From positions 1,498-65,497 of the forward strand of contig CAZUJL010000022.1 of NCBI GenBank assembly GCA_964620045.1: a DNA stretch of 64,000 nucleotides, written 5' to 3'. The DNA is from an uncultured Nitrospirales bacterium. GTDB taxonomy: Bacteria > Hydrogenedentota > Hydrogenedentia > Hydrogenedentales > GCA-2746185. This document shows positions 72 to 31,725 of the stretch, in pieces (positions within the stretch are counted from its first letter, which is position 1; the number at the start of each line of letters is the position of its first letter). The notes under the pieces were generated by a model. It searched no databases. It saw nothing but the letters and a program-made list of their open reading frames with translations, and was not told where the DNA came from. The position numbers and the translations under genes are program-made.

Positions 72-1781
72 ATGCGGATGTTCTCCACCGACCACAAAAC
101 CGTCGGCATTCAATACGCCCTCGCCGCGGCGTTTTTCCTGCTCGCCGGCCTCACCATCATCCTCCTCATCCGCTGGCAGCTCGCGTACTCCGGCGAGGCG
201 GTGCCCGTGCTCGGCCGGTTCATCAGCGCCGACAACCCGCACATGCCCGAAGGCAAGATGACGTCGACCTTCTACAACTCGCTCGGCGCGATGCACGGCA
301 CGATCATGGTCTTCCTCGCCGTGGTGCCGATGCTGACCGGCGCGTTCGGCATCTACCTCGTGCCGCTGCAGATCGGCGCGCCGGGCATGGCGTTCCCGCG
401 GCTGACGCTGCTCGGCTTCTGGGCGTATCTGCTCGGCGGGCTCACGATCCTCGCGAGCTTCTTCCTGCCCGATGGCCCCGCGTACTCCGGCTGGACCTCG
501 TATCCGCCGCTGTCCGTCATCGCGCCGGACGGGCAGACCGCGTGGCTCGTCGGAATGCTGTTCGTGATCGCGGCGTCCACCTTCGGCGCGGTGAACATGA
601 TCGCCACGATCATCCAACTCCGCGCGCCGGGACTTTCGTTCATGCGCCTGCCGCTGTTCGTGTGGGCGCAGTTCGTCGCGGCGTTCCTGCTGCTCACGGC
701 CTTCCCCTCGCTCGAGGCCGCGAGCCTGCTCCAGCTCTCCGACCGCCTGCTGGACACCAGCTTCTTCATGCCGAGCGGACTCGTCGTGAGCGGCGAGCAA
801 CTCGAATACACCGGCGGCGGGAGTCCGCTGCTGTGGCAGCACCTCTTCTGGTTCCTCGCGCACCCGGAGGTGTACGTGCTCGTGCTGCCCGCGATCGGCA
901 TCGTGGGCGAAGTGATCAGCAACAACACGCGCCGGCCGATCTGGAGCTATCGTGCGGCGGTCGCCTCCGTGCTCGCCGTTGGGTTCATGTCCTTCCTCGT
1001 GTGGGCGCACCATATGTTCCTCACGGGTATGGGCACGACGATGAACGCGTTTTTCGAGCTCACCACGATGATCGTGTCCGTGCCGTCGGTCGTGCTGCTC
1101 ACCGTCATGGTGGCCTCGCTCTGGGGCGGCGCCATCCGGTTCACCACGCCGATGCTGTACGCGCTCGCCTTCCTGCCGATGTTCGGCCTGGGCGGACTCA
1201 CGGGACTGCCGCTCGGCCTCGCGATGTCGGATATTTACCTGCACGACACCTACTACGTCGTCGGTCACTTCCACTACATCGTCGCGCCGGGCACGATATT
1301 TGCCATCTTCGCAGGCGTGTATCACTGGTTCCCGAAGATCACGGGACGGAAAATGAGCCACCTGCTGGGGCACCTGCACTTCTGGCCGACGCTGCTGTGC
1401 ATGAACGCGATCTTTTTCCCGATGCTGCTGCAGGGTTTCCACGGCGTGTCGCGGCGCTTGTATGACGGCGGGCTGAACTACGCGCACGCGCAAGACGTGC
1501 TGATCCTGAACAAGATCATGTCGCACTCGGCCTTCCTGCTCGCGGCTGTGCAGCTCGTGTTCCTCGCGAACCTCGCGTGGAGCTTCTTCTTCGGGAAGCG
1601 CGTCGAGCACAACCCGTGGGACGCGACGACGCTGGAGTGGACCGCGCCCTCGCCGCCGGTGCGCAGCGGCAACTTCGAGACCGCGCCGGCGGTGTACCGC
1701 GGGCCGTATGAATACAGCGTGCCCGGCGCGGCGCGGGACTTCAGCCCGCAGGCGCAGACCGACGGAGGCGCGCCGGCATGA
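72..1781 (+). CDS. ctaD: cytochrome c oxidase subunit I (haem-copper oxidase catalytic subunit)
   Basis: 569 aa polytopic membrane protein; N-terminal FSTDHKTVGIQY and His-rich motifs (HHMF, GHFHY) typical of CoxI; in-frame stop at 42-44 upstream, so start is 72 or shortly after; overlaps next gene by 4 nt. Confidence 0.9.
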   Translation: MRMFSTDHKTVGIQYALAAAFFLLAGLTIILLIRWQLAYSGEAVPVLGRFISADNPHMPEGKMTSTFYNSLGAMHGTIMVFLAVVPMLTGAFGIYLVPLQIGAPGMAFPRLTLLGFWAYLLGGLTILASFFLPDGPAYSGWTSYPPLSVIAPDGQTAWLVGMLFVIAASTFGAVNMIATIIQLRAPGLSFMRLPLFVWAQFVAAFLLLTAFPSLEAASLLQLSDRLLDTSFFMPSGLVVSGEQLEYTGGGSPLLWQHLFWFLAHPEVYVLVLPAIGIVGEVISNNTRRPIWSYRAAVASVLAVGFMSFLVWAHHMFLTGMGTTMNAFFELTTMIVSVPSVVLLTVMVASLWGGAIRFTTPMLYALAFLPMFGLGGLTGLPLGLAMSDIYLHDTYYVVGHFHYIVAPGTIFAIFAGVYHWFPKITGRKMSHLLGHLHFWPTLLCMNAIFFPMLLQGFHGVSRRLYDGGLNYAHAQDVLILNKIMSHSAFLLAAVQLVFLANLAWSFFFGKRVEHNPWDATTLEWTAPSPPVRSGNFETAPAVYRGPYEYSVPGAARDFSPQAQTDGGAPA

Positions 1782-2650
1782 GGGACCTGCTCGGCTTCCC
1801 GCTGGTCGCCTCAGAACACGGCGGCGCGATGACCAACTTCATCCTCGGCGTGCACGCGATCATGCTGGTCGTGTTTTTCGCCTGGGGCCTATGGTTCGTC
1901 ACCGCGCTCATCCGCTTCCGCGCGACGCGCAACCCGCACGCCGATCATCGCGGCCTGCGCACGCGCCTGCCCTACGCCGCTGCCGCTGCGCTCGCGCTCA
2001 CCGAAGCCGCGCTGCTCTTCGGCGTGTCGCTGCCGTTCTGGCACAAGACGATCGCGGCCGCGCCGGACCCCGCCCGCGAGGATGTATACGTCGTGCGCGT
2101 GATCGGCCAGCAGTTCCAGTGGAACGTGCACTATCCCGGCGCGGACGGCGTCTTCGGGCGCACGAGTCCGGCGCTGGTCGACGACGTGCTAAACCCGCTC
2201 GGTCTCGACAACGACGACCCCGCCTCGGCCGACGACATCACGACGCTGAACCAGTTGCACCTGCCGATCGGCAAGATCGCGCTGATTTATCTCGGCTCGA
2301 AGGACGTGATCCATAGCTTCTTTCTGCCGGAATTCCGCGTGAAGCAGGACGCAATCCCCGGCATGCGCGTGCCGGTGTACTTCACGCCGACGATGACCAG
2401 CGAGGAGTTCCGCGCGAAGATTGGAAATCCCGCGCGCGAGTTTGAGATCGCGTGCGCGCAGCTCTGCGGCATCAACCACTACACGATGCGCGGGTTCGTG
2501 ACCATTGAGACGCAGGAGCAGCTTGATGCGTGGTACGCCGCGCAGCTCGAGCAGAAGAAGGAGTACGCTGCGGACGACTGGTGGGTCGAGGCCGCGCCGG
2601 AAACTCTGCCACCGACGCCGGCGCCCGCCCCGGAACCGCAGCAACCCTGA
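1778..2650 (+). CDS. coxB: cytochrome c oxidase subunit II (CuA cupredoxin subunit)
   Basis: 290 aa; two N-terminal TM helices; DVIHSFFLPEFRVKQDAIPG and CuA ligand pattern CAQLCGINHYTM; no fused cytochrome c domain. Confidence 0.8.
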   Translation: MRDLLGFPLVASEHGGAMTNFILGVHAIMLVVFFAWGLWFVTALIRFRATRNPHADHRGLRTRLPYAAAAALALTEAALLFGVSLPFWHKTIAAAPDPAREDVYVVRVIGQQFQWNVHYPGADGVFGRTSPALVDDVLNPLGLDNDDPASADDITTLNQLHLPIGKIALIYLGSKDVIHSFFLPEFRVKQDAIPGMRVPVYFTPTMTSEEFRAKIGNPAREFEIACAQLCGINHYTMRGFVTIETQEQLDAWYAAQLEQKKEYAADDWWVEAAPETLPPTPAPAPEPQQP

Positions 2651-2750: not shown

Positions 2751-3764
2751 TCAGTTTCCGTTGGCTGCGCCTTCGGCTGGCTTCGCTTCGGTGGTCGCGG
2801 CCGGCTTGGCGACGAAGCCTTCGACTTCGAAAGGCGCGCTCCACTGCGTCTCGCCCCACACGAGGCGCACGATGCCGCCGTTGGCGGTTTGCTCCAGCTC
2901 AACCTTGAAGGTTTCCGCCGGTTCGGCAGGCTTGCCGGTTTCAAGCGCGACCTCGGCGGCGTCGGCTTCGGGGTTGTGCATCGTGCCCCACACGTCCGAC
3001 TCGCTATTGAAGATCAGGTTCCAGCCGGTGGCGGTCTTGCGCATCCAGAGGCTGTACACGCCGGGGTAGTCCGGCGCGACGTTTTCCTTCTTCACGACGC
3101 CCTGCGCGAACTTCATGTCCACGTCGGTCATCAGCTTCGTCGCGCGGCCGCCGACGAATTCGAACACTTCGCCTTCCTTCACTTCGCTCAGGCGCTTATA
3201 GTCTTCGTCGGCCGTCGCGAGCGGATGAAAGTTGACGCTTACTTTGTCGTCGCCGAAGCGCAGGCGTGCGGAGTTGGCGGCCATGCGACGATTGCGGCTG
3301 CGCGTCTCGCGGATTTCCGCGTCTTCACCGGCGGCAACCACGGCCGTGAACGGCGCGCTGAACAGGCCGCTGTCTTCGGCGAAGGTGCCTTCGAGGCCTT
3401 CGGCCGACGGCGTAGCCGTCACCGTGACCTGAAATTCCTGCTGCCCGAACTTCAGCGGATACTTGAGCACCATGTTGCCGCGCTCGTCGATCGAGACGTC
3501 TTCGATGGCCGTCGGCTCGGGCAACTGCGCCGAATCGATCGTGGCGCCGACTTTGCCTTCGAGATCGACGACAATCATGTTGAAATTCATCTGACGTCCC
3601 ATCATGTCGATGGTGACCGCCCAGTTACTGAGGAAATCCCGGGCTTCCGACGAATCGAGCTTCGTCGGCACCGGATCTTCGGCGACCACGGCGGGCGAAA
3701 CCGCCGCCATCATCGCCATCGCGCACACTGCCACCCATTGCCACCCTTGAAATCCCGCGCGCAT
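2751..3764 (-). CDS. secreted protein with C-terminal DUF2911-like domain (paralogue of 27568..28263)
   Basis: 337 aa, N-terminal signal peptide; C-terminal about 110 aa (ENVAPDYPGVYSLWMRKTATGWNLIFNSESDVWGTM...WGETQWSAPFEV) clearly homologous to the 27568..28263 product (ENVAKGYAGVYSLWIKKTADGWAFVFNQKPDVWGTM...WGAHQWSAKFAI); family name from memory, unverified. Confidence 0.5.
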   Translation of the reverse strand: MRAGFQGWQWVAVCAMAMMAAVSPAVVAEDPVPTKLDSSEARDFLSNWAVTIDMMGRQMNFNMIVVDLEGKVGATIDSAQLPEPTAIEDVSIDERGNMVLKYPLKFGQQEFQVTVTATPSAEGLEGTFAEDSGLFSAPFTAVVAAGEDAEIRETRSRNRRMAANSARLRFGDDKVSVNFHPLATADEDYKRLSEVKEGEVFEFVGGRATKLMTDVDMKFAQGVVKKENVAPDYPGVYSLWMRKTATGWNLIFNSESDVWGTMHNPEADAAEVALETGKPAEPAETFKVELEQTANGGIVRLVWGETQWSAPFEVEGFVAKPAATTEAKPAEGAANGN

Positions 3765-3917
3765 GCTCAGACACCCTCTTTGCGTTCGCCGCTGCGGGCG
3801 AACCCAGTCTGCAAGCCAAGGCCCGGCGCAGCGCCGGGCACGTACCCTTAAAGATTATCGGGAGGGACCCGGTTTATGGCCGAATCCCTCCCCGGAACGC
3901 AACTATACGTCACCGGT

Positions 3918-5171
3918 TCAGTCGCCGGGGAACTGCACATCCTTCTTCGGCGCGACGGTCATCCAGGCAAGGTCCATTTCGTCGGTGGTCGGACCGCCGA
4001 AACGAATCGCTTCGCTGGAGTCGAAGCCCGCGGCCGCGCCGCGTTCGTCGGAGTTGTCGTACCAGAATTCCATTTCGACGCGCGTACCGGCCGGCAGAAT
4101 CTTGTGCTCGGCGTAGTCGTAGCCCGTCTGCCAGTTAAAGTCCCACGCCGGAACGTGCAGAAGCTGTTCCGAGGTGCCATCCGGATAGAACGCGGTGTAC
4201 TTCGCTTCGGTACCGCGCAGGTGCATGTGCGGCAGCATCGAGAGCACGATCGTGTCTTCGTCGAAGGTGTGCGACGCGCCAACTTTCCAGTGCTTCGCGT
4301 GCGGCGGAATTTCAAACGAGCCGTGGGCGACCGGGAAGATATTGACCGGGTGCGTGACTTTCGCGCCCTCGGGGTGGAACTGGAGACCGATCTGCGAGCT
4401 GTCCCACTTGCCCGTGCCCGGGCCGGCTTCCTTGTGATAGTGCATCGCGAAGGTGATCGCGGAGCCCTTCTTGAGCTCGATGCCGTAGCCTTCCGGCCAC
4501 TGCGACTGGTCCGCGCCCGGCGCGTTGCCGCCCAGCATGCCGCGGCTGGTTTCGCCGGCATGTTCCTTGGAGTTCGCGTGACCGATGATATGGTGCACCA
4601 CGTCGCTACCCGGCTTGAATTCAATGCTGCGAATCCAGCGATCGTTCGGAAGCTGCTCTTCGGTGAGCTGCGTGGTGATGTTTTCGTAAAGGTCCTGCAC
4701 CTCGTCCTTCACGAAGAAGGGCTTCGGGAAATCGACGACGAGGTCCGGCTGACCGAAGTTCCAACCCGTCTCCGAGAACTTAATCGGGGCGGGGGCATCC
4801 TGCGGATTGCCGCGCTTGGCACCCTGCTGGACCCAGTCGGTCAAGGTCTTGATCTGTTCGGCGGATAGCGTGCGCTCGTTGCTGAACACGCCGTGGTATT
4901 CCTCGGACGCGTCCCACGGCGGCATCACCTTTTCGTTCACCGCCTTCACCATTGCCTTTGCCCACGGACGAACTTCCTCGTAGGTCATCAGCGACATCGG
5001 CGCGACCATGCCCGAGAGATTGATGCCCGAGGGGCGGTGGCAGGTCTGACATTTTTCCTGCAGGATCGGCAGCACGTCCTTGGTGAACGTGATTTCCGCC
5101 TGCGCGGCGCCCGCGAACGATGCGCCGACCAGCGCAGCGCCCAGAGCGACTTTCTTCGTGAGGTAGTGCAT
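3918..5171 (-). CDS. secreted mono-haem cytochrome c fused to PHM/DBH-like type II copper monooxygenase domain (paralogue 1 of 4)
   Basis: Signal peptide from ATG at 5171 (GGGAGA RBS 6 nt upstream; ORF track extends to 5237); CQTCH haem motif plus MPPW; then VHH ... MHYHKE ... HMHLRGT ... TDEMDLAWM, matching the CuH (H,H,H) and CuM (HxH,M) ligand order and spacing of peptidylglycine alpha-hydroxylating monooxygenase; FNWQ motif shared by all four paralogues. Confidence 0.6.
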   Translation of the reverse strand: MHYLTKKVALGAALVGASFAGAAQAEITFTKDVLPILQEKCQTCHRPSGINLSGMVAPMSLMTYEEVRPWAKAMVKAVNEKVMPPWDASEEYHGVFSNERTLSAEQIKTLTDWVQQGAKRGNPQDAPAPIKFSETGWNFGQPDLVVDFPKPFFVKDEVQDLYENITTQLTEEQLPNDRWIRSIEFKPGSDVVHHIIGHANSKEHAGETSRGMLGGNAPGADQSQWPEGYGIELKKGSAITFAMHYHKEAGPGTGKWDSSQIGLQFHPEGAKVTHPVNIFPVAHGSFEIPPHAKHWKVGASHTFDEDTIVLSMLPHMHLRGTEAKYTAFYPDGTSEQLLHVPAWDFNWQTGYDYAEHKILPAGTRVEMEFWYDNSDERGAAAGFDSSEAIRFGGPTTDEMDLAWMTVAPKKDVQFPGD

Positions 5172-5245: not shown

Positions 5246-5641
5246 TCAGTATTCGCTGATCACGCTCATTCGAATCACGTTAGCGCCCTTGGCCGTGTAC
5301 TTGAGTCCTTGGACGGTGACCTTCTTGCCGACATATTCCGCGACGAACTTATTTGCCAATTCCAAATGGGAGGCCGGCGCGTTGTTGCGGTAGACGGCGA
5401 TCCAGACTATGCCGGTCTCGTCTTCGAGAATGCCGACGGGGAATCCTTCCTCGATGCGCGCCTTGTGCGCGGCCACGAGCTCGGGCGTGTAGCCCTGCAT
5501 CGCGTAGGTACCAAGTTCGATAACGTCTCCGACGATGATGCCCTTCTCACCTTTTGGTGCCGCATCCTGCGCGAACACCCATGCACCCGCGGTGAGAGCC
5601 ATCGCCGCACAAACGAACACAATCGCGTACTTGCGCTTCAT
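5246..5641 (-). CDS. small secreted hypothetical protein
   Basis: 131 aa with signal peptide; sits between the monooxygenase paralogue and the giant cytochrome in a same-strand tightly spaced array. Confidence 0.4.
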   Translation of the reverse strand: MKRKYAIVFVCAAMALTAGAWVFAQDAAPKGEKGIIVGDVIELGTYAMQGYTPELVAAHKARIEEGFPVGILEDETGIVWIAVYRNNAPASHLELANKFVAEYVGKKVTVQGLKYTAKGANVIRMSVISEY

Positions 5642-5881
5642 GCCTTCCTCCAGTTACCGGGCCGACCGCCCGGAGTCGCTCCGCGCTCTTCCGGTCATTC
5701 CCGCGCGGATATCTGATAATACGTAAACGCGGGCCTGGCCGTCCACCCCCGGCGGCTGCCGCGAGACTCCGTAACTCGAACCTTTCAAAAGACTTACGGA
5801 ATCGACTGCTTTCGCCGCGGGATTCGGCTTCGATGAGTGAAAACACCACCCAAAGCGTCCGGGTTCCAGCAAAACCCCAGC

Positions 5882-8800
5882 CTACGGCTGTTTTTTCACC
5901 GGAAACAGTGCTTTTATTTCCCGCACATTCCCGGCCAATTCGTCGAATCCTGCCTGCACCCGCGGCGCGTCTGCCGTGTCGCCTGCGCGGTCGATTTTGT
6001 TGACCGTCCGGTTCACGGTGCCCAGCATGTATTTCAGCCGGCCTTTCTGCCGCGGATCGACGCCCGTTGTTTCCGGTTTCGAGAGCGCCGCGACCAGATC
6101 GGCGATATCGAGCGCCGGCTGATAGAGCGTGTACCAATCCTTGGCCGCGATGCGCGCGCGCAGGTCTTCTTGTTTAAGATCGATTAGCGCAAGAATTTCC
6201 GGCGCCGTGGCGGGAATTAGCAGCGGCGGGCGGAAGTGGCTGTGCGTCGGCGGCACCCCCGGAGCACCGGGGACGCCCGGCGTCGCCATGCCGGGCATTC
6301 CGGGCATGGCCGACGCGGACGGCGCACCGCCGGTGTCGACCGTGACCTGATCGAACTCAAAGTCGAAGCGTTTGTCGACACCGCCGAGTTTGACGAGCGC
6401 ATACAAGGTCGACGGCATCTGCGGCGGCACGACGGCCATCAAGTAGTCCGCGCCGGGCCGGATCAACTGGAGTTCGTAGACGTCTTCCGTGACTTCGCCG
6501 GTCTTCTCGTTCAGATGTTCGATGCGCGCAGTGCCGGTGAAGTTGCGCGGATCGATCGGACGGCGGAAGTCGTCGTAGAAATACACGCGGAACTCACCGG
6601 GGCTCGGCATGGTGCCTTCCACGTGGTGGAAGAGATTGTCCGCCATGTGGAATTGACCGCCGTGGATTGGATTGTGGTTCATGTGCGCGACGGCGGTGTT
6701 CAGCGCGATCGCGGGATCGATCGTCACCGCGTCGAAGTTGAACGTGAAGGCTTCGCGCTTGCCGCCGATCCACACGCCGGCCTTCACTTCGAGTGGCGTC
6801 GCCGGAGAAACATACGCCACCAGACTTTCGGGCGATTGTGTGTCCCGACTCATCGGCAGCTTCTTGCCGTCCAGTTCAATTTCCGCCGCGAACAGACCGG
6901 GATCAACGGGATGTTTCCACGCGTCGTAGAAATACAGGCGAAGTTCGCCCGGATGCGGCAAGGCGGCTTCGACGTAATGGAAACCGTCGGCGGAGGGATA
7001 GATTTCAGGACTGCCGTGCGGGCCGAGGACGATGGCCTGTTTCGGGGTTGCGTCGGTGGCCGGGTCCCACGGTTCTTCGCTGATTTCGTCAAACTCGAAC
7101 TCGATCGACTGCTTCCCCGTGCCGATGGCGAGTGTGACACGCGTCTTCATCGGCAATTCAGGATTCACTTTCGCGGCGAGGTACTCCGCGCGCGGCGACG
7201 GCACTACGAGGGCGATCGGCGTTCCCGCGGATGACTGCGGGCTGCCGCCGAGCACTTCGGCCTGCGCCGTGAAACCACGCGGATCGATCGGTTGCAAGTT
7301 GGGACCGTAAAAATACAACCGCAGATCGCCGGGCGCCGGCAACGCGGCTTCGACGCGATACTCGGTGCCTTCGATCGCTTCGAGCCAACCACCGTGCGGC
7401 GGTTCGGTGAAACCCTGCTTGGCGGCCGGGTCTTGTGACGCCGCGGGCGGCGTAGGCCCGTTGAACGTGAAGTCGAAGGCTTCTTCCTCGCCGCCGAGCA
7501 AGACCTTGGCGGTAAGCGTTTGCGGAAACACGGGATCCAGCCAGGCGGAAAGGTGATCGTCGCCGGGCAGGAACTGCGTCAACGGCACACTGCGCGCGCC
7601 GCCGTCCACCAGAAGTTCCGCTTTGAAATTGCGCGGATCGATTGGCGCCATACGGTCGTCATAGATGTACAGCGAGAACGCGCCGGGCCGCGGCATTGTG
7701 CCTTGCACTTGGTGGTAGCCATTCTTCGCGATGCGGATACGCTCCGGCTCCTGCGGCACGTCGATGGTCTCGGCGACCGCCTTGGTGGTTTCCGCGACCG
7801 TGCGGCCACCGCCCAGTGCGTCGACGATTTCACCGCCGATGCCGCCCAGCATGCCGCCGCCTTGTTGCGGCTCCTTGGTCACGACGACGGGCGTGAGCTT
7901 GAGGTGATCGTCGAGCGTGTAGTGGAAGTACATGTACAGCCGCTCGTCGAGATAACCCGGACCGGTCTTCACATCTTTTGGCGGACTGTTCGGATTCGAC
8001 TCGTTCGCCTCGGTGTTGTCGAGGTAGCTCGTCAGCACGAGCCGCGCGCCCTGCGGGGCGGCGACCGGCTCTGCGAAGCGATAACTCGTCGCCCACCGTT
8101 GCTGGTATCTCGGCACCCACGCGAGCGTGCGTTCGATGCCGTCGGGATAGAAGATTTCGATCTTAAGCTGCGTCGCCACGGGCCCCGCATGCGGCTCGAT
8201 GGCGAGCAGGTGCGTGTTCTCGGTGAACACATACTCCACTTTCTTCTGCACTTTCTCGCCCACCTTCACCGCAAACGCGGGCGCTTCGGCGAGACGCGAT
8301 TCGACCATCAAATCGAACTCTTCGTTGGGCGCGGCGAGGAACAGGCCGAGGCGCGTGTTGTCGCGGATTTCCTGCGACCAATCGGCCCACTCGGGGCGGA
8401 CGTATTCGACACGCAGTTCGATGCTCGAGCCTTTGTACAGCTTGCGGCCGGCGGTTTGCGGATACATCACCGGGCCATCGCCCTTCACCCACTGGCCGAG
8501 GAAATGCGGACCGGCGGGCATGGGACGCATGCGCGTGATCTCGCGTTCTTTTTCGGTCGCGTAGGGATCGTAGGCGCCCTTGACCTCCATCTCGATCGCG
8601 GGCGGCTGGAAACCTTCGGGATCGTGGAGCCACGCGGTGACGCGGGCGACGTTTTGCGGATTGCCGACCAGAAATTCGTAGCCGGTGATGTAGGTATCCG
8701 CGGGAACATCGACGGCGATGAGGGCTTCGGCCGAATCGTAGACCTTGTCTTTCGGCACGACGTGGCCCTGCGGCAATGCGACGATCAGACCGGGCGCGCC

Positions 8801-9259
8801 CAGCGACCATGTAGGCTCGGCGAATTCCTCCGGCGGTGGCAGATTGCGGTATGGGCCTTGGGGACCACCGCCGCGAATCCAGGCAATGACCATGTCTTTT
8901 TCTTCGCTCGTTAGCGCGCGCGAGTTTTCGAAATGGCCGAAGCGATCGTCCGCGTTCCAGGGCGGCATGCGGCCGAGCATGATCTCGTCTTCGATCTGGG
9001 CGGCCCATGCGCGTGCGCCGGGCTTTGTATCGGTACCGTAGACCGTTAAGTCCACGTAATCCGGCGCGAGGCCGCCGGGGTGGTGGCAAGGCATGCACTT
9101 CTGGATGAAGATCGGCCGGATGGTCTCGCTCCAGGTAACGTCGGTGGTAATCCTGGTGTGGGCGGAGGCCGGAATCGGCGCGATATACAAGGAAAGGGCT
9201 GCCAAGCCCACTGCGGCGAGGGCGATGGCCGTCAAAATCAGGAATTTCGGTCGTTTCAT
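5882..9259 (-). CDS. large secreted cytochrome c with four internal YFYD repeat domains (about 115 aa each)
   Basis: Start at ATG 9259 (MKRPKFLILTAIAL signal peptide); N-terminal CMPCHHPGG ... MPPW module homologous to the N-terminal module of the four monooxygenase paralogues; four repeats each containing P-x-PGE(L/F)R(L/V)YFYD ... P(I/V)DP(R/G)(N/G)F and ending in F-(D/T)-F-(T/E)-F. Confidence 0.6.
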   Translation of the reverse strand: MKRPKFLILTAIALAAVGLAALSLYIAPIPASAHTRITTDVTWSETIRPIFIQKCMPCHHPGGLAPDYVDLTVYGTDTKPGARAWAAQIEDEIMLGRMPPWNADDRFGHFENSRALTSEEKDMVIAWIRGGGPQGPYRNLPPPEEFAEPTWSLGAPGLIVALPQGHVVPKDKVYDSAEALIAVDVPADTYITGYEFLVGNPQNVARVTAWLHDPEGFQPPAIEMEVKGAYDPYATEKEREITRMRPMPAGPHFLGQWVKGDGPVMYPQTAGRKLYKGSSIELRVEYVRPEWADWSQEIRDNTRLGLFLAAPNEEFDLMVESRLAEAPAFAVKVGEKVQKKVEYVFTENTHLLAIEPHAGPVATQLKIEIFYPDGIERTLAWVPRYQQRWATSYRFAEPVAAPQGARLVLTSYLDNTEANESNPNSPPKDVKTGPGYLDERLYMYFHYTLDDHLKLTPVVVTKEPQQGGGMLGGIGGEIVDALGGGRTVAETTKAVAETIDVPQEPERIRIAKNGYHQVQGTMPRPGAFSLYIYDDRMAPIDPRNFKAELLVDGGARSVPLTQFLPGDDHLSAWLDPVFPQTLTAKVLLGGEEEAFDFTFNGPTPPAASQDPAAKQGFTEPPHGGWLEAIEGTEYRVEAALPAPGDLRLYFYGPNLQPIDPRGFTAQAEVLGGSPQSSAGTPIALVVPSPRAEYLAAKVNPELPMKTRVTLAIGTGKQSIEFEFDEISEEPWDPATDATPKQAIVLGPHGSPEIYPSADGFHYVEAALPHPGELRLYFYDAWKHPVDPGLFAAEIELDGKKLPMSRDTQSPESLVAYVSPATPLEVKAGVWIGGKREAFTFNFDAVTIDPAIALNTAVAHMNHNPIHGGQFHMADNLFHHVEGTMPSPGEFRVYFYDDFRRPIDPRNFTGTARIEHLNEKTGEVTEDVYELQLIRPGADYLMAVVPPQMPSTLYALVKLGGVDKRFDFEFDQVTVDTGGAPSASAMPGMPGMATPGVPGAPGVPPTHSHFRPPLLIPATAPEILALIDLKQEDLRARIAAKDWYTLYQPALDIADLVAALSKPETTGVDPRQKGRLKYMLGTVNRTVNKIDRAGDTADAPRVQAGFDELAGNVREIKALFPVKKQP

Positions 9260-9354: not shown

Positions 9355-11379
9355 CTAGACCTTGGCGAGTTCGGCTTCCTCGGCCTGCTCGAAGGGTTCC
9401 TCGGCGATCATGCTGCCGATGCAGACGTAGCGCGTGGGGTTGCCGCCGGAGGAAGTGATCAAGCGGGTGCCGCCGCGGGGGACTTCTTCGTTGGGCATCG
9501 TGATGTAGGCTGGATCGGTGTAGAACTTGGCCTTGTTCTCGAAGCAGCCCTCGACCGTGATGCGGTGGCCGGCGGAATCGCCGGCTTCGATCCGCATCTG
9601 GTACTGCTTCCAGACCACGTCGCGCGCGGCATCGAAGTCTTTCTGCAGGCGGTCCGATTCATCTTTGTATTTTTTGGCGGCCATGAGGCGCTTTTCGATC
9701 GTCCGTGTCATCAGGGTGACGAAGGGCGTGTCGATGCGCTTCTTGAGCCGTTCGCTGGCGCCGCGTTCACCGGCTTTCTTGAGCAGGCGCTGGAGCGTGA
9801 GCACGCGGGAGCGGCCTTGGGCCTCTTCGATCAGTTCCTTCGCCTCGATCGACTTACGAATGTTCTCGCGGCCGAGGCGAATGGTCTCTTCCAGCGCGAT
9901 GAATTCCTGCCGCCAGTGCTGGAGTTTTTCACCGATGTCGGCCAATGCGGAACTCATCAGCTTCCGGTTTCCGCGCACGCCGCGCAGGCGCTTCCGCGAT
10001 TCGGCGACTTGATCGTAGGATTCCGTCAGCGTTGCGTCGTTTGGTTGCTCGCTGATGATTTGCTTCATTTCGCCGTCGAGCCGATCGAAGAAATCCGGTT
10101 CGGCCGCGGCCTCTTCCTCTTCGCCGGTGCCGTCGATCTTGGCTTCGGCTTCCGCGTACAGCGCGCGCAGGCCGAGCAGCACGCGGTTCAAAACATCCAA
10201 GCGCCGTTGCGCGGAGAGCACATCGCCGGCCATCTGACCCGCGGCATCGCCGGCGAGGATGTAGGTCAGCGCGGTTTCGGCGGCGTCTTCGGCTTCTTTC
10301 AGCACGAGTTGAAGTTGCTGGCGAGCGCATTGCAGTTCGGCGCGCGTGCGGAGTGCGCGCGTGACGTCGATCGTCATCTGCTTGCCGGGATTCTCGCCGT
10401 AATCCTTGCACGAAAGGCTGCGGCGGAAGACGATGTCGAGCGTGGCATCGGGCAAGGATCGGAACATGGCGGACTCAACCCGCAGCGACGAGTGCATCTC
10501 GCCCGCTTCGATGCATTCGGCGACCTTAATCGTCGGCGCGAGGAAGCGGCAGCGCGAGGCGCGCTCGCTGACTTTGATCGTGTTGCCGGCGAATACCAGC
10601 TTGGTGCCCGCGGCACGGCGGCAGTGCACCCAGCCGCGCTTGGCGACGATCATGGAGCCGTCGACGATATTGCGCGCGCGCACGTCGCCATTGCGGCTGA
10701 TCACGACGCCGGAGATGTTTTCGAGCACTTCGCAGGTGCCGCTGACGGCGACACGGCCGATGACGAAGCCGTCGACGACGCAGGCGCCGTCCTCGACGAC
10801 GAGCGTGGTGTTTTGCGGCACGTCGCCGAGCACGCGGACGTGGCCGCTGTGTACCATCACGGGCCCGCGCGAGGGGAGTTCCACGCCGGCGATGACGCGC
10901 ACTTCGCGCGCTTGCGCGGCGAGGATGTCTTGCGCGCGGATGACGAGGAAGCGCGCGGACAAGGCGGGCGTGCCGACGACGGCGGGCATGCCGGCGCGGC
11001 GTGCGGCGATGCGGGCGCGGCGTGGCGCGATCGCGCGGCGCACACGCTCGAAGGTAACGGGATTTTGTGCGGCGTGCGCGAACCCGTGAACTGCTTCGAG
11101 CAGATCGAGTTCGTCGCGGCTCATTTTGTCGACTTCGTCTCTTTCGAGACGGTCGATTAGTTCGCGCAACAGTGTTTGGCTGCGGCGGCCTTCGGAGTTC
11201 GGCTTTGCGTGATCGGAGGCGGAGAGCCAGCGCTCAAGGCGGCCTGGTAATTTTTCGATACCCTCGAGGGGTTCTTTGTCGGCGCCGCCATTGGAAAGCC
11301 ACACTTGGCAGAGGGCCGCGTCCTGGATACCGAGCAGGGCGAGCGCCTCGTCGTCCATCGACAAGACGTGCTCCACCAA
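9355..11379 (-). CDS. FapA/DUF342-like protein (beta-helix plus long coiled coil)
   Basis: 674 aa; central region of short V/G-rich repeats (VIAGVELPSRGPVMVHSGHVRVLGDV...VVEDGACVVDGFVIGRVAVSGTCEVLEN) suggestive of a beta-helix, followed by a long Glu/Arg/Leu-rich coiled coil; resemblance to the FapA family is from memory. Confidence 0.35.
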   Translation of the reverse strand: MVEHVLSMDDEALALLGIQDAALCQVWLSNGGADKEPLEGIEKLPGRLERWLSASDHAKPNSEGRRSQTLLRELIDRLERDEVDKMSRDELDLLEAVHGFAHAAQNPVTFERVRRAIAPRRARIAARRAGMPAVVGTPALSARFLVIRAQDILAAQAREVRVIAGVELPSRGPVMVHSGHVRVLGDVPQNTTLVVEDGACVVDGFVIGRVAVSGTCEVLENISGVVISRNGDVRARNIVDGSMIVAKRGWVHCRRAAGTKLVFAGNTIKVSERASRCRFLAPTIKVAECIEAGEMHSSLRVESAMFRSLPDATLDIVFRRSLSCKDYGENPGKQMTIDVTRALRTRAELQCARQQLQLVLKEAEDAAETALTYILAGDAAGQMAGDVLSAQRRLDVLNRVLLGLRALYAEAEAKIDGTGEEEEAAAEPDFFDRLDGEMKQIISEQPNDATLTESYDQVAESRKRLRGVRGNRKLMSSALADIGEKLQHWRQEFIALEETIRLGRENIRKSIEAKELIEEAQGRSRVLTLQRLLKKAGERGASERLKKRIDTPFVTLMTRTIEKRLMAAKKYKDESDRLQKDFDAARDVVWKQYQMRIEAGDSAGHRITVEGCFENKAKFYTDPAYITMPNEEVPRGGTRLITSSGGNPTRYVCIGSMIAEEPFEQAEEAELAKV

Positions 11380-13244: not shown

Positions 13245-15227
13245 TTAAGGCGCAGTTACGCCGATTCGGGCGATGCCGTTGACGGATTGGATTGTCATGG
13301 CTTTGTCGATGGTTGGGGTTTCGGCAGATTCGGCATCGGCGGTGTCACCCTTGATGTTGATGGTGCCGCCAGAATCTATAAGGGTGATCACCTCGGTCAA
13401 TGTATTGAAGGGGTGAGTTTCGATCCCGGCTTCGGGCCCAATCGCGGCGAAGTCGATCCACATGATGTCGGTGGGCGGGAAACTGGCGGCGTTTAGAACG
13501 CCGGTGCCGGCAGCGACCTCTCCACCGTCTCCGAAGCCATCGCCGTCGGTATCGAATAACAGCGGGTTGATGCCGAAAACGCTTTCGACCAGATTGCTGA
13601 GGCCGTCGCCGTCGTAGTCGTTTTGGCCGTCGGCGACTCCGTCTGGACTATTCGCGCCGTTGTTGCCGGTGGTGTCGCCGAGGAAGGCATCAAAGGGATT
13701 TTGGACTCCGGGCGTACCCGGATCGAGGTCTACTGATTCTACGGCATCGGATACGCCATCACCATCGGTGTCGGTTTCAGAAGGTGCGCCGAAACTTGAT
13801 GCGCTGATGGGGTTGTAGCCGAAAGTGAACTCGTCTTCGTTGTTCATGCCGTCGTTGTCCCAATCGTTCCAGCCGTCGATGAGGCTGTCGGACGCGGTGA
13901 CGAAGTTGTCGGAGGTGGAGTCGGCGTTTGATGGGTTGAAGGGGTTTTGCGTTCCGGAAATTGCGGAGTCGAGATCGCGGGTTTCGTCATTGTCGGCAAT
14001 GCGATCGTTGTCGGTGTCCGGGCCACGACCGACGCCGGATAGAATTACTGTCCTTGTACCTGACGAGGCCCCGCTGTAAGGAATGCTTAGAGAAGCCGTT
14101 CGAAGGCCAGAAGCAGATGGCTCGAATCGAACTACGATGTTGCGAACAGATCGTCCGGCGACTGTTCCACTGCTACCTCCACTGAGTATGGCGAAATCAC
14201 TTGCGTGGGTTCCGGAGATGCCAATAGAAGAGACCGACAGGGAACCTATCTGCAAATTCGCAAAAACAACTGTACGTTGTTGACCTAATGAGCTGGGGCT
14301 CGCAGCAGGAAAAACAACAACCTGTGGCGCCAGTGGCGAATTGACTTGCCAACCCAAGTCCCTCATTACAGGAACGCTGAGATCAAGATCGTTAAAGAAG
14401 GCGAACCCGGGCACCGTTTTTTGCATAAGCAAAACCGGTGAATGAGCTGTATGCCAATGATGAACAACTTGTTGCAAATCAGGATGAGTGTGAACCATGG
14501 GAAGAGTACCGAAATCCGTGGAGATTACCCCGGGGCCACCATGAGCGCCGGCAAACGGTGCTGTTGTGGTTCCTCCAAAAAAGATATCACCCAGTTGCAT
14601 GGCGTCAAGGCGAAAGCCGCCATTTGTAGCCGGGCTAGAGGTTACAAATGAATCAAAAATACTTCCATCATCTGCGAAGCCAACAAATAGTCGTTGATCG
14701 TAAATGCTTGGAATGTTTCCTCCAAACAGTCCGTTGGACGTAGTCACTCTCGAACGAAATCCAAAACTATGCCCGAGCTCATGTAGCGCAACAGTCACGA
14801 AATTAGTCAAGCTAAAATCACCAGCGCCATCGAGTTTAAAATAAAAATTTTCTCCAGTATGAAATCGGACACGGGCATGGTAGCCGATATAGTCACCCGT
14901 ACTTGGGGTATAGTTTTCGTCGTCTATTTGACTCGCCAAAGCCGCTGGATATCCTATATCTGGCAAGCCATTGATAGTCAGAAACTCCTGTGTGGGCCGA
15001 CCTTCCCCTGGAGGAGAATCGATGGCAGATAAATCCTCAAACGAGGCGTGAATTTTAATAGGAATCGTTCCTTCCAACGACCGCTCCCATATTTTCATCG
15101 CATGTTCGAAAGCTATTTTCGCCTCATCTGGAAATGGGCCGAAATAGTCTGCAGACATAACAGCCTGTCCACTGACTGGAACACAAATCAGGAGCGAGAG
15201 CACGAAGCTGAGGTGCCTTACAAACAT
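13245..15227 (-). CDS. secreted zinc metalloprotease (HExxH) with C-terminal thrombospondin type-3-like calcium-binding repeats
   Basis: Signal peptide; VALHELGHSFGF zincin motif; C-terminal Asp-rich repeats DTDGDGVSDAVE, DYDGDGLSNLVE, DTDGDGFGDGGE; 5' catalytic-domain portion of the gene lies in the low-GC patch. Confidence 0.6.
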   Translation of the reverse strand: MFVRHLSFVLSLLICVPVSGQAVMSADYFGPFPDEAKIAFEHAMKIWERSLEGTIPIKIHASFEDLSAIDSPPGEGRPTQEFLTINGLPDIGYPAALASQIDDENYTPSTGDYIGYHARVRFHTGENFYFKLDGAGDFSLTNFVTVALHELGHSFGFRSRVTTSNGLFGGNIPSIYDQRLFVGFADDGSIFDSFVTSSPATNGGFRLDAMQLGDIFFGGTTTAPFAGAHGGPGVISTDFGTLPMVHTHPDLQQVVHHWHTAHSPVLLMQKTVPGFAFFNDLDLSVPVMRDLGWQVNSPLAPQVVVFPAASPSSLGQQRTVVFANLQIGSLSVSSIGISGTHASDFAILSGGSSGTVAGRSVRNIVVRFEPSASGLRTASLSIPYSGASSGTRTVILSGVGRGPDTDNDRIADNDETRDLDSAISGTQNPFNPSNADSTSDNFVTASDSLIDGWNDWDNDGMNNEDEFTFGYNPISASSFGAPSETDTDGDGVSDAVESVDLDPGTPGVQNPFDAFLGDTTGNNGANSPDGVADGQNDYDGDGLSNLVESVFGINPLLFDTDGDGFGDGGEVAAGTGVLNAASFPPTDIMWIDFAAIGPEAGIETHPFNTLTEVITLIDSGGTINIKGDTADAESAETPTIDKAMTIQSVNGIARIGVTAP

Positions 15228-15241
15228 AGGAAATCCTTGGA

Positions 15242-16954
15242 CTATTGTTCCAATGACGGCAATGCAACGGCACCGTTTGGACGAACCAAAAAGCGTTCGT
15301 GAGCATGCTGAACTGGTGTAACGCGATAACCCCGCAACGGAAGGGCGGGACTGCCACTTACATCTACATATGGCCAGAACAAACCGGACTCACTTTTTGA
15401 GTCTGATACCAACCGGCCTTCGCGATCCGTGGTAGCGATCACTTCACTCAACGGCAATGTGCGTTGCAGGTAGATTGATTTGTCGCCTCGCCGTACAATC
15501 CAGATGATTCCAAGTTGTGGCTGGTCGGTTTGTTTTGGCATGACATAGGATCCATCGGATAGTTCGATGAGCCAACCAATCGTTCCGTCTGGTTTTATAA
15601 GAGGCTGTCTCGCTCTTGCGGATATTGGAAATACCACTTCATCGGCAGGAACGGGCCTTACGCCTTGCGCGTCTCGATACGGCCATATGTCATATTCGAA
15701 AGGCAGTGTTTGGTGCTCGGATTCTTCGAGATCGACAATGCCTGTGGATCGAATCGAGGCATATCGGCCGTTCTCCAATTTGCCACTGTGCTCAAGAACA
15801 AGCTCGTTGTCATCTAAATAAGAAACCAGATAATGAGCGTCGCCGACTTGAACGGTGTCGCGAATACCAACAAGTTCCCCATGTTTTCCTAAATATGCTC
15901 TTGAAAGCAGGTAATTTCGGCTCCAAGAGAGACTGATGATCCCAGGATGCAAGCGCGTTGGCGTTTGCGACATGTATCGTCCGGCGTTCATCCATTTAGC
16001 GACAGGCCGAGGCGGCAAGGCTGCTCCAACTTCGCTAAGACTGGCTACGGCGAAAGCAATGCGGCTCTGTTGGCATGTAGGTTCCACTTCATCCACTAGT
16101 GGCGAGTTGGTGAGGTTGCGTAGATTCATTCCAGCGACGGACGTCGAGTAGATGTCGAAATCGCCAGCGCGATCTGACGCAAACAGGACCGACTGGCCAT
16201 CTGGAGACCAGACTGGATCCCTGTCTTCACCTGGATGATCTGTGATTTGCGTTATCTCGCCCGTAGAAGGATTCAGAATATAGATATCGCCGAAGCCGAG
16301 TGTGTTTCCACGTGCAACAATACGAGTTCCGTCTGGTGACCATGCGGGTTGAGTTAGGAAAACAGATCTCTTTATGGAAATTGGTGTCAGCCCCTCTTTA
16401 TTTGCGTGTGAAAGAACATATGCTCGTTTGCGTTCTTCCATTGATATAGTGAGGGAGGAAACAATCAGCTCAGAAGTCGTTGGGGAAATGGCTGGATCAA
16501 ACACCGGGATTGATGCACTCACCATCAGTAATGGAGCACCACTCGTCAAACTCTGACCCATTACCACTGCATCACGTATGCTTTTGCCCATGGACACGAA
16601 GGCTATACCTCCTCCATCCGGTGTCCAGACGGGCTTTATCTCGTTACTTTCGGCATCTTTCGTAAAACGGCGGTTGTCCGATCCGTCTATGTTCATCAGC
16701 CATATGTCGAAGCCACGGCCATCGTCGCGGGCGTAGGCGATTTGTTTGCCATCGGGGGACCAGGCAGGTTGCTGTACGATGGATTTTCCGTCGGTGAGGC
16801 GGACGCGATTGGTGCCGTCGTCGTTCATGGTGTAGATGTCGTAAACGTACATTTGCTGCGCGGCGGCGAGTTGCGCGAGTTGGGCGTGGGCGCGCGGCAA
16901 CAACGTAGCGGACGCCAGAATCACAAGCGGAAACAAGGATTTGCATAGTCGCAC
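15242..16954 (-). CDS. secreted TolB-like beta-propeller (PD40 repeat) protein with uncharacterised C-terminal domain
   Basis: Signal peptide; repeated WSPDG motifs (PAWSPDGKQIAY, VWTPDGGGIAF, PAWSPDGTRIV, PVWSPDGQSVLFASDRAGDFDIY); C-terminal about 270 aa with no recognised motif, encoded in the low-GC patch. Confidence 0.55.
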   Translation of the reverse strand: MRLCKSLFPLVILASATLLPRAHAQLAQLAAAQQMYVYDIYTMNDDGTNRVRLTDGKSIVQQPAWSPDGKQIAYARDDGRGFDIWLMNIDGSDNRRFTKDAESNEIKPVWTPDGGGIAFVSMGKSIRDAVVMGQSLTSGAPLLMVSASIPVFDPAISPTTSELIVSSLTISMEERKRAYVLSHANKEGLTPISIKRSVFLTQPAWSPDGTRIVARGNTLGFGDIYILNPSTGEITQITDHPGEDRDPVWSPDGQSVLFASDRAGDFDIYSTSVAGMNLRNLTNSPLVDEVEPTCQQSRIAFAVASLSEVGAALPPRPVAKWMNAGRYMSQTPTRLHPGIISLSWSRNYLLSRAYLGKHGELVGIRDTVQVGDAHYLVSYLDDNELVLEHSGKLENGRYASIRSTGIVDLEESEHQTLPFEYDIWPYRDAQGVRPVPADEVVFPISARARQPLIKPDGTIGWLIELSDGSYVMPKQTDQPQLGIIWIVRRGDKSIYLQRTLPLSEVIATTDREGRLVSDSKSESGLFWPYVDVSGSPALPLRGYRVTPVQHAHERFLVRPNGAVALPSLEQ

Positions 16955-19607: not shown

Positions 19608-20957
19608 GTGAAGCTGCGATCCACGATGGGATGGTGTGCGGGATTTGCCGCGCTGACGGTGACGATCGGCGCGTGGGCGGCGGATGCTCCCGACGGCGCG
19701 CGGAAGATCACGTTTACGAAAGACATCCTGCCGATTCTCCAGGAGAACTGCCAGGAATGTCACCGGCCGGGCGGCGACACGGTCGCGGGCGTGGGCGCGC
19801 CGATGGCGTTGATCACGTACGACGAAGTGCGGCCGTGGGCGAAGGCGATGGCCGAGAAAGTGACGGCGAAGGAAATGCCGCCGTGGGACGCGACGGACGC
19901 GACGCACGGACTATTCGTCAACGAGCGCAGCCTGTCGGCGGAGCAGATCGATACATTCGTGAAGTGGGCGGCGAGTGGCGCGGCTCGCGGCAACCCGAGC
20001 GATGCGCCGCCGGTGAAAGAATTGGCGGACAACGACGGCTGGGTGATGGGCAAGCCCGATCTTGAAGTTTATTTGGAAGACCCGTATTGGGTGAAAGACG
20101 AGATTGTCGACATTCAACCGATGTTCCAGATCAAGATTACGAAAGAGATGCTGCCGGAGCCGCGCTGGATTCAGGCGGCGGAGTGCCGCCCGGCGACGTC
20201 GATGGTGCATCACACGTTCAGCACCGTAACGGCGCCCGCGGTGGAAGGGCATCCGGAGGAAATGTTTGCGCTGGTGTCCGCGGCGGCGGGTGAAGATCCG
20301 CAGCAGTTCCCGGACGGTTTCGGCAATCTGCTGCGGCCGGGTTCGGTGGTGAATATTTCGATGCACTACCACAAGGAGCCGGGACCGGGCACGGGCAAGT
20401 GGGACCGCTCGGGCGTGGGCATCAAGTTTTATCCGAAGGGCCGCGAGATTGAGCACAAGGTGAACTGGGGCCCGATCGGCGACAACGGCATCGGGAACGC
20501 GGGCTTCGAAGTGCCGCCGAATCACGCGAGCTGGCCGGTGGGCTGGAGCGGAACCTTTGATGACGACACGCTGCTGCTGTCGCTGCACCCGCACATGCAT
20601 TACCGCGGCAAGAGCATGACGTACACGGCGTATTACCCCGACGGCACGACCGAAATGCTGCTCGACGTTGACCGGTATAACTTCGCGTGGCAGACGATTT
20701 ACTTCTATAAACAACCGAAGCTCATTCCGGCGGGTACGCGCATTGACGCGATCGCGGTGTTTGATAATTCGGAAAGCGCGAAGGCCGCGTGGCCGGAGAT
20801 CGATACCTCGCAGCCGGTGCGGTTCGGCGAGGCGTCGACGGACGAGATGATGATCCCGTATGTGTCGTGGACGCATGCTGACCCGGTTGCGGGGCAGGCG
20901 TATCGCGACAAGAACATGGCGCACCGCAAGCGGGTGCTGACGGAAGGCGTGGAGTAA
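19608..20957 (+). CDS. secreted mono-haem cytochrome c fused to PHM/DBH-like copper monooxygenase domain (paralogue 2 of 4)
   Basis: GTG start with GGGAGA RBS 6 nt upstream (alternative ATG 19626); CQECH plus MPPW; MVHH ... MHYHKEPGPGTGKWD ... HPHMHYRGK ... FAWQ ... STDEMMIPY. Confidence 0.6.
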   Translation: MKLRSTMGWCAGFAALTVTIGAWAADAPDGARKITFTKDILPILQENCQECHRPGGDTVAGVGAPMALITYDEVRPWAKAMAEKVTAKEMPPWDATDATHGLFVNERSLSAEQIDTFVKWAASGAARGNPSDAPPVKELADNDGWVMGKPDLEVYLEDPYWVKDEIVDIQPMFQIKITKEMLPEPRWIQAAECRPATSMVHHTFSTVTAPAVEGHPEEMFALVSAAAGEDPQQFPDGFGNLLRPGSVVNISMHYHKEPGPGTGKWDRSGVGIKFYPKGREIEHKVNWGPIGDNGIGNAGFEVPPNHASWPVGWSGTFDDDTLLLSLHPHMHYRGKSMTYTAYYPDGTTEMLLDVDRYNFAWQTIYFYKQPKLIPAGTRIDAIAVFDNSESAKAAWPEIDTSQPVRFGEASTDEMMIPYVSWTHADPVAGQAYRDKNMAHRKRVLTEGVE

Positions 20958-30281: not shown

Positions 30282-30320
30282 ATCGACAAATCAAAGTCCG
30301 TTCACAGGGGTTTTAATCTC

Positions 30321-31590: not shown

Positions 31591-31632
31591 TGGGTTTCGA
31601 CCCACCGCCCCGTCTCTTTTTAGGGCGCAGGA
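31591..31632 (+). terminator. strong intrinsic terminator-like hairpin with no upstream ORF
   Basis: Perfect 11-bp stem gggcggtgggt / acccaccgccc with loop ttcg, followed by cgtctcttttt; nearest upstream plus-strand CDS ends 450 nt away. Confidence 0.5.
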
Positions 31633-31725
31633 TTGAACTCCCGCGAGGGGGTGTATAGACTACGGCCCTTCCAGTGGGCCGCATTTCGCGGGTTTTTTCT
31701 TAATTTTTGGGCCTTGTCCTCATTC

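Follow-up and report, generated by a model that had tools for sequence, protein, structure and literature searches.

What might a bacterium do with an exported protein that carries one haem, the body of a monooxygenase and four tandem sandwich domains? The question is raised by a minus-strand gene in a 64,000-nucleotide stretch of contig CAZUJL010000022.1 (positions 1,498 to 65,497; assembly GCA_964620045.1) from an uncultured bacterium of the Hydrogenedentota lineage. That whole stretch is the window of this analysis, and the 1125-residue product of the gene is here called the giant protein. It is a single-haem cytochrome c, predicted to be exported and joined to a PHM-like pseudo-monooxygenase, four immunoglobulin (Ig)-like repeats and a helix bundle, as judged from its sequence and structure models. 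As to its function, we tentatively favour, at a little less than an even chance, a periplasmic, redox-linked role in handling a metal, probably copper, in which the protein would hold, reduce or deliver copper and use the dead monooxygenase body for docking.

A haem domain and a monooxygenase-like body

The outline of the protein given in an earlier note on this DNA (1125 residues, export, a CxxCH motif with MPPW, and four genuine repeats) was borne out by the open reading frame, by the profile scores described below and by a database search, which returned one identical sequence and 13 orthologues of 41–78% identity, all of them full-length and with four repeats. The start codon lies 95 bp downstream of the stop of the upstream gene, with a purine-rich stretch on its 5′ side (coordinates are collected in Table 1). 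The giant protein has two cysteines in total, both within the CxxCH motif, and no other redox cofactor motif. Searches of Pfam and NCBIfam gave no family above threshold, only sub-threshold cytochrome matches and chance matches, and PDB sequence searches with a paralogue and with profiles of the family, the repeat and the bundle returned nothing significant. Similarly, no paper on the family was found in the literature searched (on HMBD and DUF3347, PF19335, bacterial PHM homologues and Pfam accessions); the one PF19335 paper dealt with an unrelated plant protein. The names in the source records are all "hypothetical protein", apart from one spurious ribosomal name. When the giant protein was modelled at full length (mean predicted local distance difference test, pLDDT, 84; predicted template-modelling score 0.48), the individual domains came out as confident, and the repeats form four separate eight-stranded sandwiches joined by low-confidence linkers, like beads on a string.

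The N-terminal part is related to two monooxygenase paralogues encoded in the same window. By blastp, residues 22–417 match paralogue 1 at E 1e-33, and the giant protein matches paralogue 2 at E 7e-25. The earlier note had described a haem module common to the giant protein and these paralogues; the module is indeed shared, but the homology is wider and spans the whole N-terminal ~450 residues. Furthermore, Foldseek aligned the modelled residues ~136–455 with PHM over ~310 columns (E 1.2e-11, probability 1.0), the PHM matches including 1phm, 6ay0 and others at E ~1e-11 with a template-modelling score of ~0.6 on the target, and aligned the same body with DBH (4zel) at E 1.2e-10.

Does this body keep the copper sites that define the PHM/DBH enzymes? 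To compare the two groups, 58 sequences of the paralogue family were assembled from genome loci, and 91 sequences were aligned for the giant family. Among the 58 paralogue sequences, 57 or all 58 have each of the haem ligands and each of the six copper ligands (HH...H, HxH...M). At the six copper-ligand columns the giant protein has A205, R206, E285, H357, G359 and R440, all of them replaced, and none of these columns is conserved across the 91 family members, which do keep the haem ligands. The CuH site (His-His ... His) is absent, with A205/R206/E285 in the giant protein and Y/H/K, R/S and E/D/Q in the family. The CuM site (His-x-His ... Met; H357/G359/R440) is absent as well: across the family, the first His is present in just 33 of 91 sequences, the second column is Gly in 65 and the Met column holds P/R/Q.

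Because all six copper ligands are replaced, the PHM-like body is best described as a pseudo-enzyme; its defining copper sites having been tested and found absent, it is a structural but not a functional member of the PHM/DBH group. It is not a decaying domain, since many residues of its own are invariant, among them those of an acidic EVEV..YDP..TRMR insertion, D451-H452 and a GGM motif. Its likeness to the copper type II ascorbate-dependent monooxygenases (PF01082/PF03712) lies in the double beta-sandwich. It differs from them in having no copper ligands and no match to either Pfam model at E <= 1, in being bacterial and predictably periplasmic, and in the N-terminal haem c domain that replaces ascorbate as the likely electron source.

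The haem domain is strongly conserved. C58, H59 and M98 are invariant in the 91 homologues and C55 is found in 89, the other two being gaps; M98 of the MPPW motif, a putative distal haem ligand, is also invariant in the paralogues. The modelled domain has helices at residues 43–54, 83–94 and 118–129. Curated cytochrome c models stay under their cut-offs in the giant protein (Cytochrome_CBB3, 19.7 bits vs 27; Haem_bd, 14.6 bits vs 27), and it is by motif that the protein is classed as a c-type cytochrome.

The predicted mature protein begins with a histidine, His34. A33 and H34 are nearly invariant in the family alignment, and the homologues have classical signal peptides ending in ANA/H or ASA/H, the slash marking the predicted cleavage. 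Of 71 family sequences with a small-x-small-His motif within the first 60 residues, 68 have this His 21 residues ahead of CxxCH. At the aligned column, His occurs in 89 of the 91 family members and in 11 of 12 relatives encoded by a split gene pair (described below), but in 0 of the 58 copper-ligand-bearing paralogues. A conserved predicted residue-1 His after cleavage is also what the family would have in common with the histidine-brace copper proteins, which include lytic polysaccharide monooxygenases (LPMOs), some CopC proteins and PmoB. They differ in that the domain which follows the His is a cytochrome c in the giant family and an Ig-like or cupredoxin-like one in those proteins; no partner His was recognised in the giant family.

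Could the protein be a new redox enzyme? Copper would then sit at the N-terminal His, in the manner of a histidine brace, or at the cluster of repeat 4, wired to the haem c, and the PHM-derived body would bind a substrate. The distribution of the His fits this idea, as do the strong constraint on the N-domain, with its new invariant motifs, and the built-in cytochrome electron donor, which is a common enzyme design. We nevertheless consider such an enzyme unlikely: the second ligand of the brace is missing from the picture, the N-terminus is modelled with low confidence and its cleavage is a prediction, the gene context gives no clue to a substrate, and the partners of the repeat-4 module in other proteins, HMBD and CusF, point to metal trafficking.

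Four repeats and one intact cluster

The Y(F/I)Y(D/G) cores of the repeats lie at residues 531, 649, 776 and 893, with spacings of 118, 127 and 117 residues. Compared with one another by blastp, the repeats match at E 1.6e-13 to 4.7e-23 with 29–40% identity. In addition, a profile of single-repeat homologues, built without any four-repeat protein, finds all four domains in the giant protein (scores in Table 1), whereas the best of 100 shuffled controls scored 0 or below. No tandem duplication of the repeats was found in the gene at the DNA level, and the duplications are therefore old.

These results bear on several statements of the earlier note. The four tandem repeats are real, at ~115–125 residues each. 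The core that it gave, centred on YFYD and closed by an F-x-F-x-F strand, holds in outline, with YIYD in repeat 1, YFYG in repeat 2 and IEFEF as the final strand of repeat 2. A His-containing segment does precede every repeat, as stated, but the four are very unequal: HMNHNPIHGGQFHM...FHHVEG in repeat 4, PHGS...FHYVE in repeat 3, PHGGW...VE in repeat 2 and only YHQVQ in repeat 1. The predicted Ig-like beta-sandwich appears in the structure models, that of the repeat-4 domain having a pLDDT of 83. No named domain matches the repeat in Pfam or NCBIfam, in agreement with the note, and no adhesin or Ig family devoid of conserved His, the kind of match it had named as telling against its view, turned up in these libraries; repeat 4 has invariant His residues.

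The conserved residues of repeat 4 form a cluster ahead of its core. Among the 91 family members there is no variation at H859, M860, H862, M872, H878, H879 or E881, and H866 is nearly invariant. In 131 proteins of other architecture that carry the same domain, H859, H862, H866, M872, H878, H879 and E881 are near-invariant and the counterpart of M860 is mostly Gly. Repeat 4 conforms to the pattern H-x-[DN]-H-x-P-x-H-G-G-x-F-[FH]-M ... [WYF]-H-H-[LVI]-E-G and keeps all seven shared cluster residues, whereas repeats 1–3 do not conform and keep one to three of the seven. The HGG or HGS, the His and the Glu of repeats 2 and 3 are conserved among the 14 orthologues.

Most members of the giant family have a single repeat, and it corresponds to repeat 4. 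About 60 are proteins of ~740 residues from Acidobacteriota (Thermoanaerobaculia, Holophagae, Vicinamibacteraceae) with one repeat. A further ~35, of ~880 residues, come from Hydrogenedentota and Sumerlaeota and have three Cys4 HMBD-like modules ahead of the single repeat; 12 of these sister forms have precomputed HMBD hits. The four-fold array is consequently a feature of one lineage and not the functional core of the family. Repeats 1–3 stand where the sister forms have their three HMBD modules and thus look like a substitute peculiar to this lineage, most likely one of spacers or of accessory sites of low grade.

Could all four repeats still be equivalent metal or electron stations, lined up as a relay that passes copper or electrons across the periplasm? 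Four well-folded tandem sandwiches on flexible linkers would suit such a relay, and so would the residues retained in repeats 2 and 3, the position of repeats 1–3 where sister proteins have HMBD modules, and the Met-rich linker of the closest orthologues. Even so, we regard the relay as improbable. Its weakness is the degeneracy of repeats 1–3, added to the prevalence of single-repeat members; moreover, with one haem, two cysteines and no other redox cofactor motif, electrons would have no path along the repeats. Of the periplasmic electron or metal (Cu) relay scaffold proposed in the earlier note, we therefore retain a metal role, probably with copper, to which the HMBD and CusF fusions reported below point, while four equivalent sites are unlikely, only repeat 4 being intact.

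Between repeat 4 and the bundle runs a Met/Pro-rich linker that contains AMPGMPGM and, at the DNA level, a 9-nt tandem repeat (6287–6308); it ends in an H-S-H motif whose H1006 is invariant and H1008 nearly invariant in the family. It is reminiscent of the Met-rich Cu(I) motifs found in copper-resistance proteins, although its Met content (7–28%) is seen in the closest orthologues only and falls to zero in distant ones. The C-terminal bundle has modelled helices at residues 1019–1038, 1046–1059, 1069–1094 and 1098–1117, and no Pfam or PDB sequence match. The idea that it might be DUF3347 (PF11827) was rejected, as 0 of 26 bundle sequences match that model at E <= 1; weak DUF3347 matches were confined to separate N-terminal regions of two proteins (P0130 and P0132).

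The repeat-4 module in other proteins and a possible role in copper handling

An exhaustive profile search with the His-rich domain of repeat 4 returned 568 clusters (50% identity) at E <= 1e-3 and 355 at E <= 1e-10, most of them exported proteins or lipoproteins of 140–500 residues; a word-indexed homologue search with the repeat profile found five proteins and added nothing. We retrieved 143 representatives, about 12 of which are fragments of the giant family, leaving the 131 of other architecture mentioned above. The H..H.P.H.G motif is present in 125 of the 143 and [WYF]HH[LVI]E in 124. The bundle, detected with a profile of the giant-family C-terminus and marked by P-A...D and L-D-x-x-G-D motifs, accompanies the domain in 42 of the 45 representatives that are long enough. 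Neither the sandwich nor the bundle has a match in Pfam, NCBIfam or PDB sequence searches, and this conserved core module of the giant protein is undescribed in the libraries and literature searched.

What else is the module joined to? HMBD (PF19335) occurs in 77 of the 131 other proteins (59%) and CusF in one, with no other recurrent domain, and these fusions include proteins without any haem. A metal-efflux island harbours one member (L090), alongside a YHS/HMBD P-type ATPase, a DUF305 protein, an RND pump and a CDF transporter. The giant protein thus shares repeat 4 and the bundle with HMBD-containing periplasmic proteins and with a CusF fusion, and differs from them in having no HMBD of its own (no Pfam match, and no cysteines outside CxxCH), whereas its sister forms carry three HMBD-like modules. 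Periplasmic copper- or iron-binding beta-sandwiches of the P19/Tp34/FtrA/HftA group and the CopC family (CrdA) are also among the nearest known systems; the giant protein is provisionally not counted as a P19 or CopC member. Together, the domain fusions support a metal role for its module, probably with copper.

The link between the two halves of the protein is backed by a split version of it. A metagenome scan found the split arrangement in 12 loci (L109–L114, L116–L121); L115 was left out of this count because it is too short to show the second gene. The first gene encodes a signal peptide, HMBD modules, the His-rich sandwich and the bundle (~338 residues). The second follows directly and encodes a ~350-residue cytochrome c and PHM-like protein without copper ligands (HH to RR, for example); 11 of these 12 proteins begin, by prediction, with His, as in A/HEPTLSRFNF. 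In L113 the end of the first gene overlaps the called start of the second, and in the other 11 loci the stop-to-stop reading frames of the two genes overlap. The loci are mostly close relatives, L110 and L120 being more divergent. Fusion in some lineages and an overlapping gene pair in others is a classic sign of functional partnership, and the arrangement supports a functional link between the halves of the giant protein.

How would the halves work together? The first, a one-haem cytochrome on a PHM/DBH sandwich, is a paralogue of the neighbouring monooxygenases that has lost its copper ligands and gained a predicted N-terminal His. The second comprises the His-rich Ig-like sandwich and the four-helix bundle, with repeats 1–3 lying between the two. 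The His-rich module would bind a metal ion, most probably copper; the haem would supply or remove one electron, for example to turn Cu(II) into Cu(I); and the disabled monooxygenase body would serve in docking or recognition. As a soluble protein of the periplasm, it would in this way keep copper bound, reduce it or pass it on, perhaps to the adjacent copper enzymes, the intact monooxygenase paralogue and the CuA/CuB oxidase.

The logic recalls that of CCS, the copper chaperone for Cu,Zn superoxide dismutase, which has a copy of its target enzyme built in. The giant protein resembles it in fusing a target-like domain without catalytic ligands to putative metal-binding modules, next to an intact enzyme. 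It differs from CCS in having no relationship to it in sequence or fold and in belonging to a family that also occurs without an adjacent intact monooxygenase; docking and copper transfer are proposed by analogy only.

We read the metal as copper because of the cluster Met, the Met-rich linkers of the closest orthologues, the fusions with CusF and with HMBD, an efflux island of the copper type and the copper-enzyme neighbours, and because a haem makes sense only for a redox-active metal. Could the module instead handle zinc, nickel or iron, for example in buffering or delivery under metal limitation? A ligand set rich in His, Glu and Asp, and HMBD modules resembling Cys4 ribbons, would suit zinc too, and the L090 island has a CDF transporter. 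In five closely related Thermoanaerobaculia loci (L004, 10341–10646; L013, L022, L029, L042), the family gene is immediately followed by one for a Cys-less ribosomal protein S14, and FolE2 and L28 genes lie within 6 kb of another (L006); genes of these types are often regulated by zinc starvation, and their proximity weakly suggests zinc-responsive regulation. The S14 adjacency is limited to one lineage, however, and a zinc-starvation link was set aside on that account. The invariant cluster Met, the Met-rich linkers, the CusF fusion, the YHS/HMBD ATPase and DUF305 point to copper or silver, the window neighbours are copper enzymes, and the haem has no obvious use with a metal that, like zinc, is redox-inert. 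We therefore consider it doubtful that the metal is one other than copper.

What do the neighbours say? The gene order claimed in the earlier note, with the giant gene, a 131-residue protein, monooxygenase paralogue 1 and a DUF2911 protein all on the minus strand, is found as described. This order, followed by convergent COX2 and COX1 genes, is conserved in the four-repeat loci L002, L007 and L092–L095 and in one HMBD-carrying form, L108, whose N-domain is only ~48% identical. An intact monooxygenase and/or COX genes also adjoin the family gene in L005/L101, L010 and L096.

Another possibility is that no metal is handled at all and that the protein is a respiratory cytochrome c, donating electrons to the adjacent CuA oxidase or the intact monooxygenase, while its Ig-like domains and its bundle are no more than a stalk or a scaffold for docking. 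The conservation of the haem c domain and its place beside COX2/COX1 and a haem-copper monooxygenase would fit, and the generic Ig/FN3-like fold of the repeats, with no significant specific match, would suit a stalk; yet this leaves unexplained the invariant cluster of five His, one Met and one Glu, the HMBD and CusF fusions of the module in haem-less proteins, and the occurrence of the family away from oxidase genes in other phyla. We give it only a small chance.

Several observations weigh against copper handling, the role that we favour. No known metal site matches the giant protein, and Foldseek with the repeat gave nothing significant, the fold being generic. The His/Glu-rich cluster and the Cys4 modules would equally suit zinc or nickel. 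Cleavage before His34 was read by eye, the hydrophobic stretch of the signal peptide is long (~22 residues), and the model is of low confidence at residues 32–37, with pLDDT < 50 at the N-terminus. Family genes of Acidobacteriota and Sumerlaeota lie among unrelated genes without a link to copper genes, the Acidobacteriota loci being syntenic with each other only. Many genomes carry the intact monooxygenase family without a giant-type protein, and a dedicated-chaperone role therefore cannot be general. Most other contexts of the module, including three short-form proteins, are uninformative. Finally, a 240-bp gap follows the giant gene (5642–5881), with weak promoter-like and terminator-like sites; consensus scans for operon structure did no better than shuffles. 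A GC-rich hairpin with a 13-bp stem (3860–3892, minus strand), between the stop of paralogue 1 and the DUF2911 gene, may split the transcripts of the array. With this gap and this strong hairpin, a single transcript is not established.

The family, with its split version, might also be seen as an unrecognised periplasmic haem-copper system. Copper would be held at the N-terminal His and/or the five-His cluster and wired to the covalently bound haem c, and the system would work either in reducing Cu(II), as a cupric reductase, or as a copper oxidase of a new kind; its PHM-derived scaffold may have abandoned CuH and CuM, and the HMBD modules or extra sandwiches may feed or receive the metal. The chance of this is low in our judgement.

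Should the giant protein prove to be a chaperone or reductase for copper enzymes, the CCS design would have its counterpart in the periplasm, and there would be a handle on the loading of copper enzymes in poorly studied phyla (Hydrogenedentota, Sumerlaeota, Thermoanaerobaculia). The family is also of interest as a bacterial pseudo-enzyme: a sister of the haem-c-fused PHM-like family has lost every copper ligand, gained a predicted N-terminal His and become permanently coupled to a metal module, by fusion or by operon. The His-rich sandwich and bundle, a pair that spans several phyla and is mostly HMBD-fused, are a candidate new periplasmic metal-binding domain whose putative ligands can be named precisely. 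Even if its role proves ordinary, the family is cleanly defined and deserves a database model.

The surrounding genes

Table 1. Features of the giant gene, its neighbours in the window and the split pair of locus L113 (the latter in positions of that locus)
Feature	Position	Strand	Residues	Basis or remark
Giant coding sequence	5882..9259	(-)	1125 + stop	ATG at 9259, stop included at 5882; open reading frame and translation
Signal peptide	9161..9259	(-)	1–33	ends in ASA; predicted cleavage before His34; read by eye
His34, predicted first residue of the mature protein	9158..9160	(-)	34	conservation at the aligned column
Cytochrome c domain	8855..9160	(-)	34–135	
CMPCH haem motif	9083-9097	(-)	55–59	C55, C58, H59; CMPCHHPGG
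MPPW motif	8957-8968	(-)	98–101	M98
PHM/DBH-like double beta-sandwich, pseudo-monooxygenase	7895..8854	(-)	136–455	blastp, Foldseek, ligand columns
Repeat 1	7442..7744	(-)	506–606	degenerate beta-sandwich, keeps one cluster His; 72.7 bits
Repeat 2	7070..7405	(-)	619–730	degenerate beta-sandwich, keeps HGG and Glu; 51.9 bits
Repeat 3	6710..7027	(-)	745–850	degenerate beta-sandwich, keeps HGS, one His and Glu; 60.8 bits
Repeat 4	6314..6697	(-)	855–982	intact His-rich beta-sandwich, the single domain of most homologues; 176.3 bits
Conserved cluster of repeat 4	6614..6685	(-)	859–882	H-M-N-H-N-P-I-H-G-G-Q-F-H-M-A-D-N-L-F-H-H-V-E-G
Met/Pro-rich linker	6236..6313	(-)		AMPGMPGMATPG...; ends in conserved H-S-H (1006–1008); conservation
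C-terminal four-helix bundle	5885..6223	(-)	1013–1125	conserved P-A-x-D and D-R-A-G-D motifs
Exported protein, no family assignment	5246..5641	(-)	131	immediately follows the giant gene in every four-repeat locus and in L108
Monooxygenase paralogue 1	3918..5171	(-)	417	cytochrome c and PHM-like, six copper ligands intact; start taken from the L002 orthologue
Monooxygenase paralogue 2	19608-20957	(+)		blastp to the giant protein
DUF2911 protein	2751..3764	(-)		Pfam PF11138, E 6.1e-13
Haem-copper oxidase subunit I	72-1781	(+)		Pfam COX1, E 3.1e-126; convergent
Haem-copper oxidase subunit II	1778-2650	(+)		Pfam COX2, E 3.2e-09; CuA motif CAQLCGINHYTM
Upstream gene	9355-11379	(-)	~670	no Pfam family
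Split pair of L113	7862-8878 and 8868-9920			11-nt overlap

The upstream gene likewise adjoins the giant gene in L002, L007 and L092, where DHDPS and DUF6498 genes again lie beyond it. Oxidase subunit II has Gln in place of the usual Glu in its CuA motif and is not fused to a cytochrome c domain.

Both monooxygenase paralogues are members of a large family of bacterial PHM-like proteins fused to a haem c domain. In a genome scan, 583 relatives were confirmed, from Acidobacteriota, Planctomycetota and Verrucomicrobiota, mostly bearing the copper ligands. Pfam barely detects this family, one paralogue giving only a sub-threshold match to PF03712 (E 1e-3), and the literature search found no paper on it.

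The G+C content of the window dips to 0.49 at 14001–16000 and to 0.53 at 30001–32000, against ~0.62 elsewhere, and this low-GC DNA may stem from horizontal transfer. The first dip takes in a gene for a 660-residue exported protein (13245–15227, minus strand) with a zinc-protease-like HELGH motif and Asp-rich repeats of the calcium-binding type.

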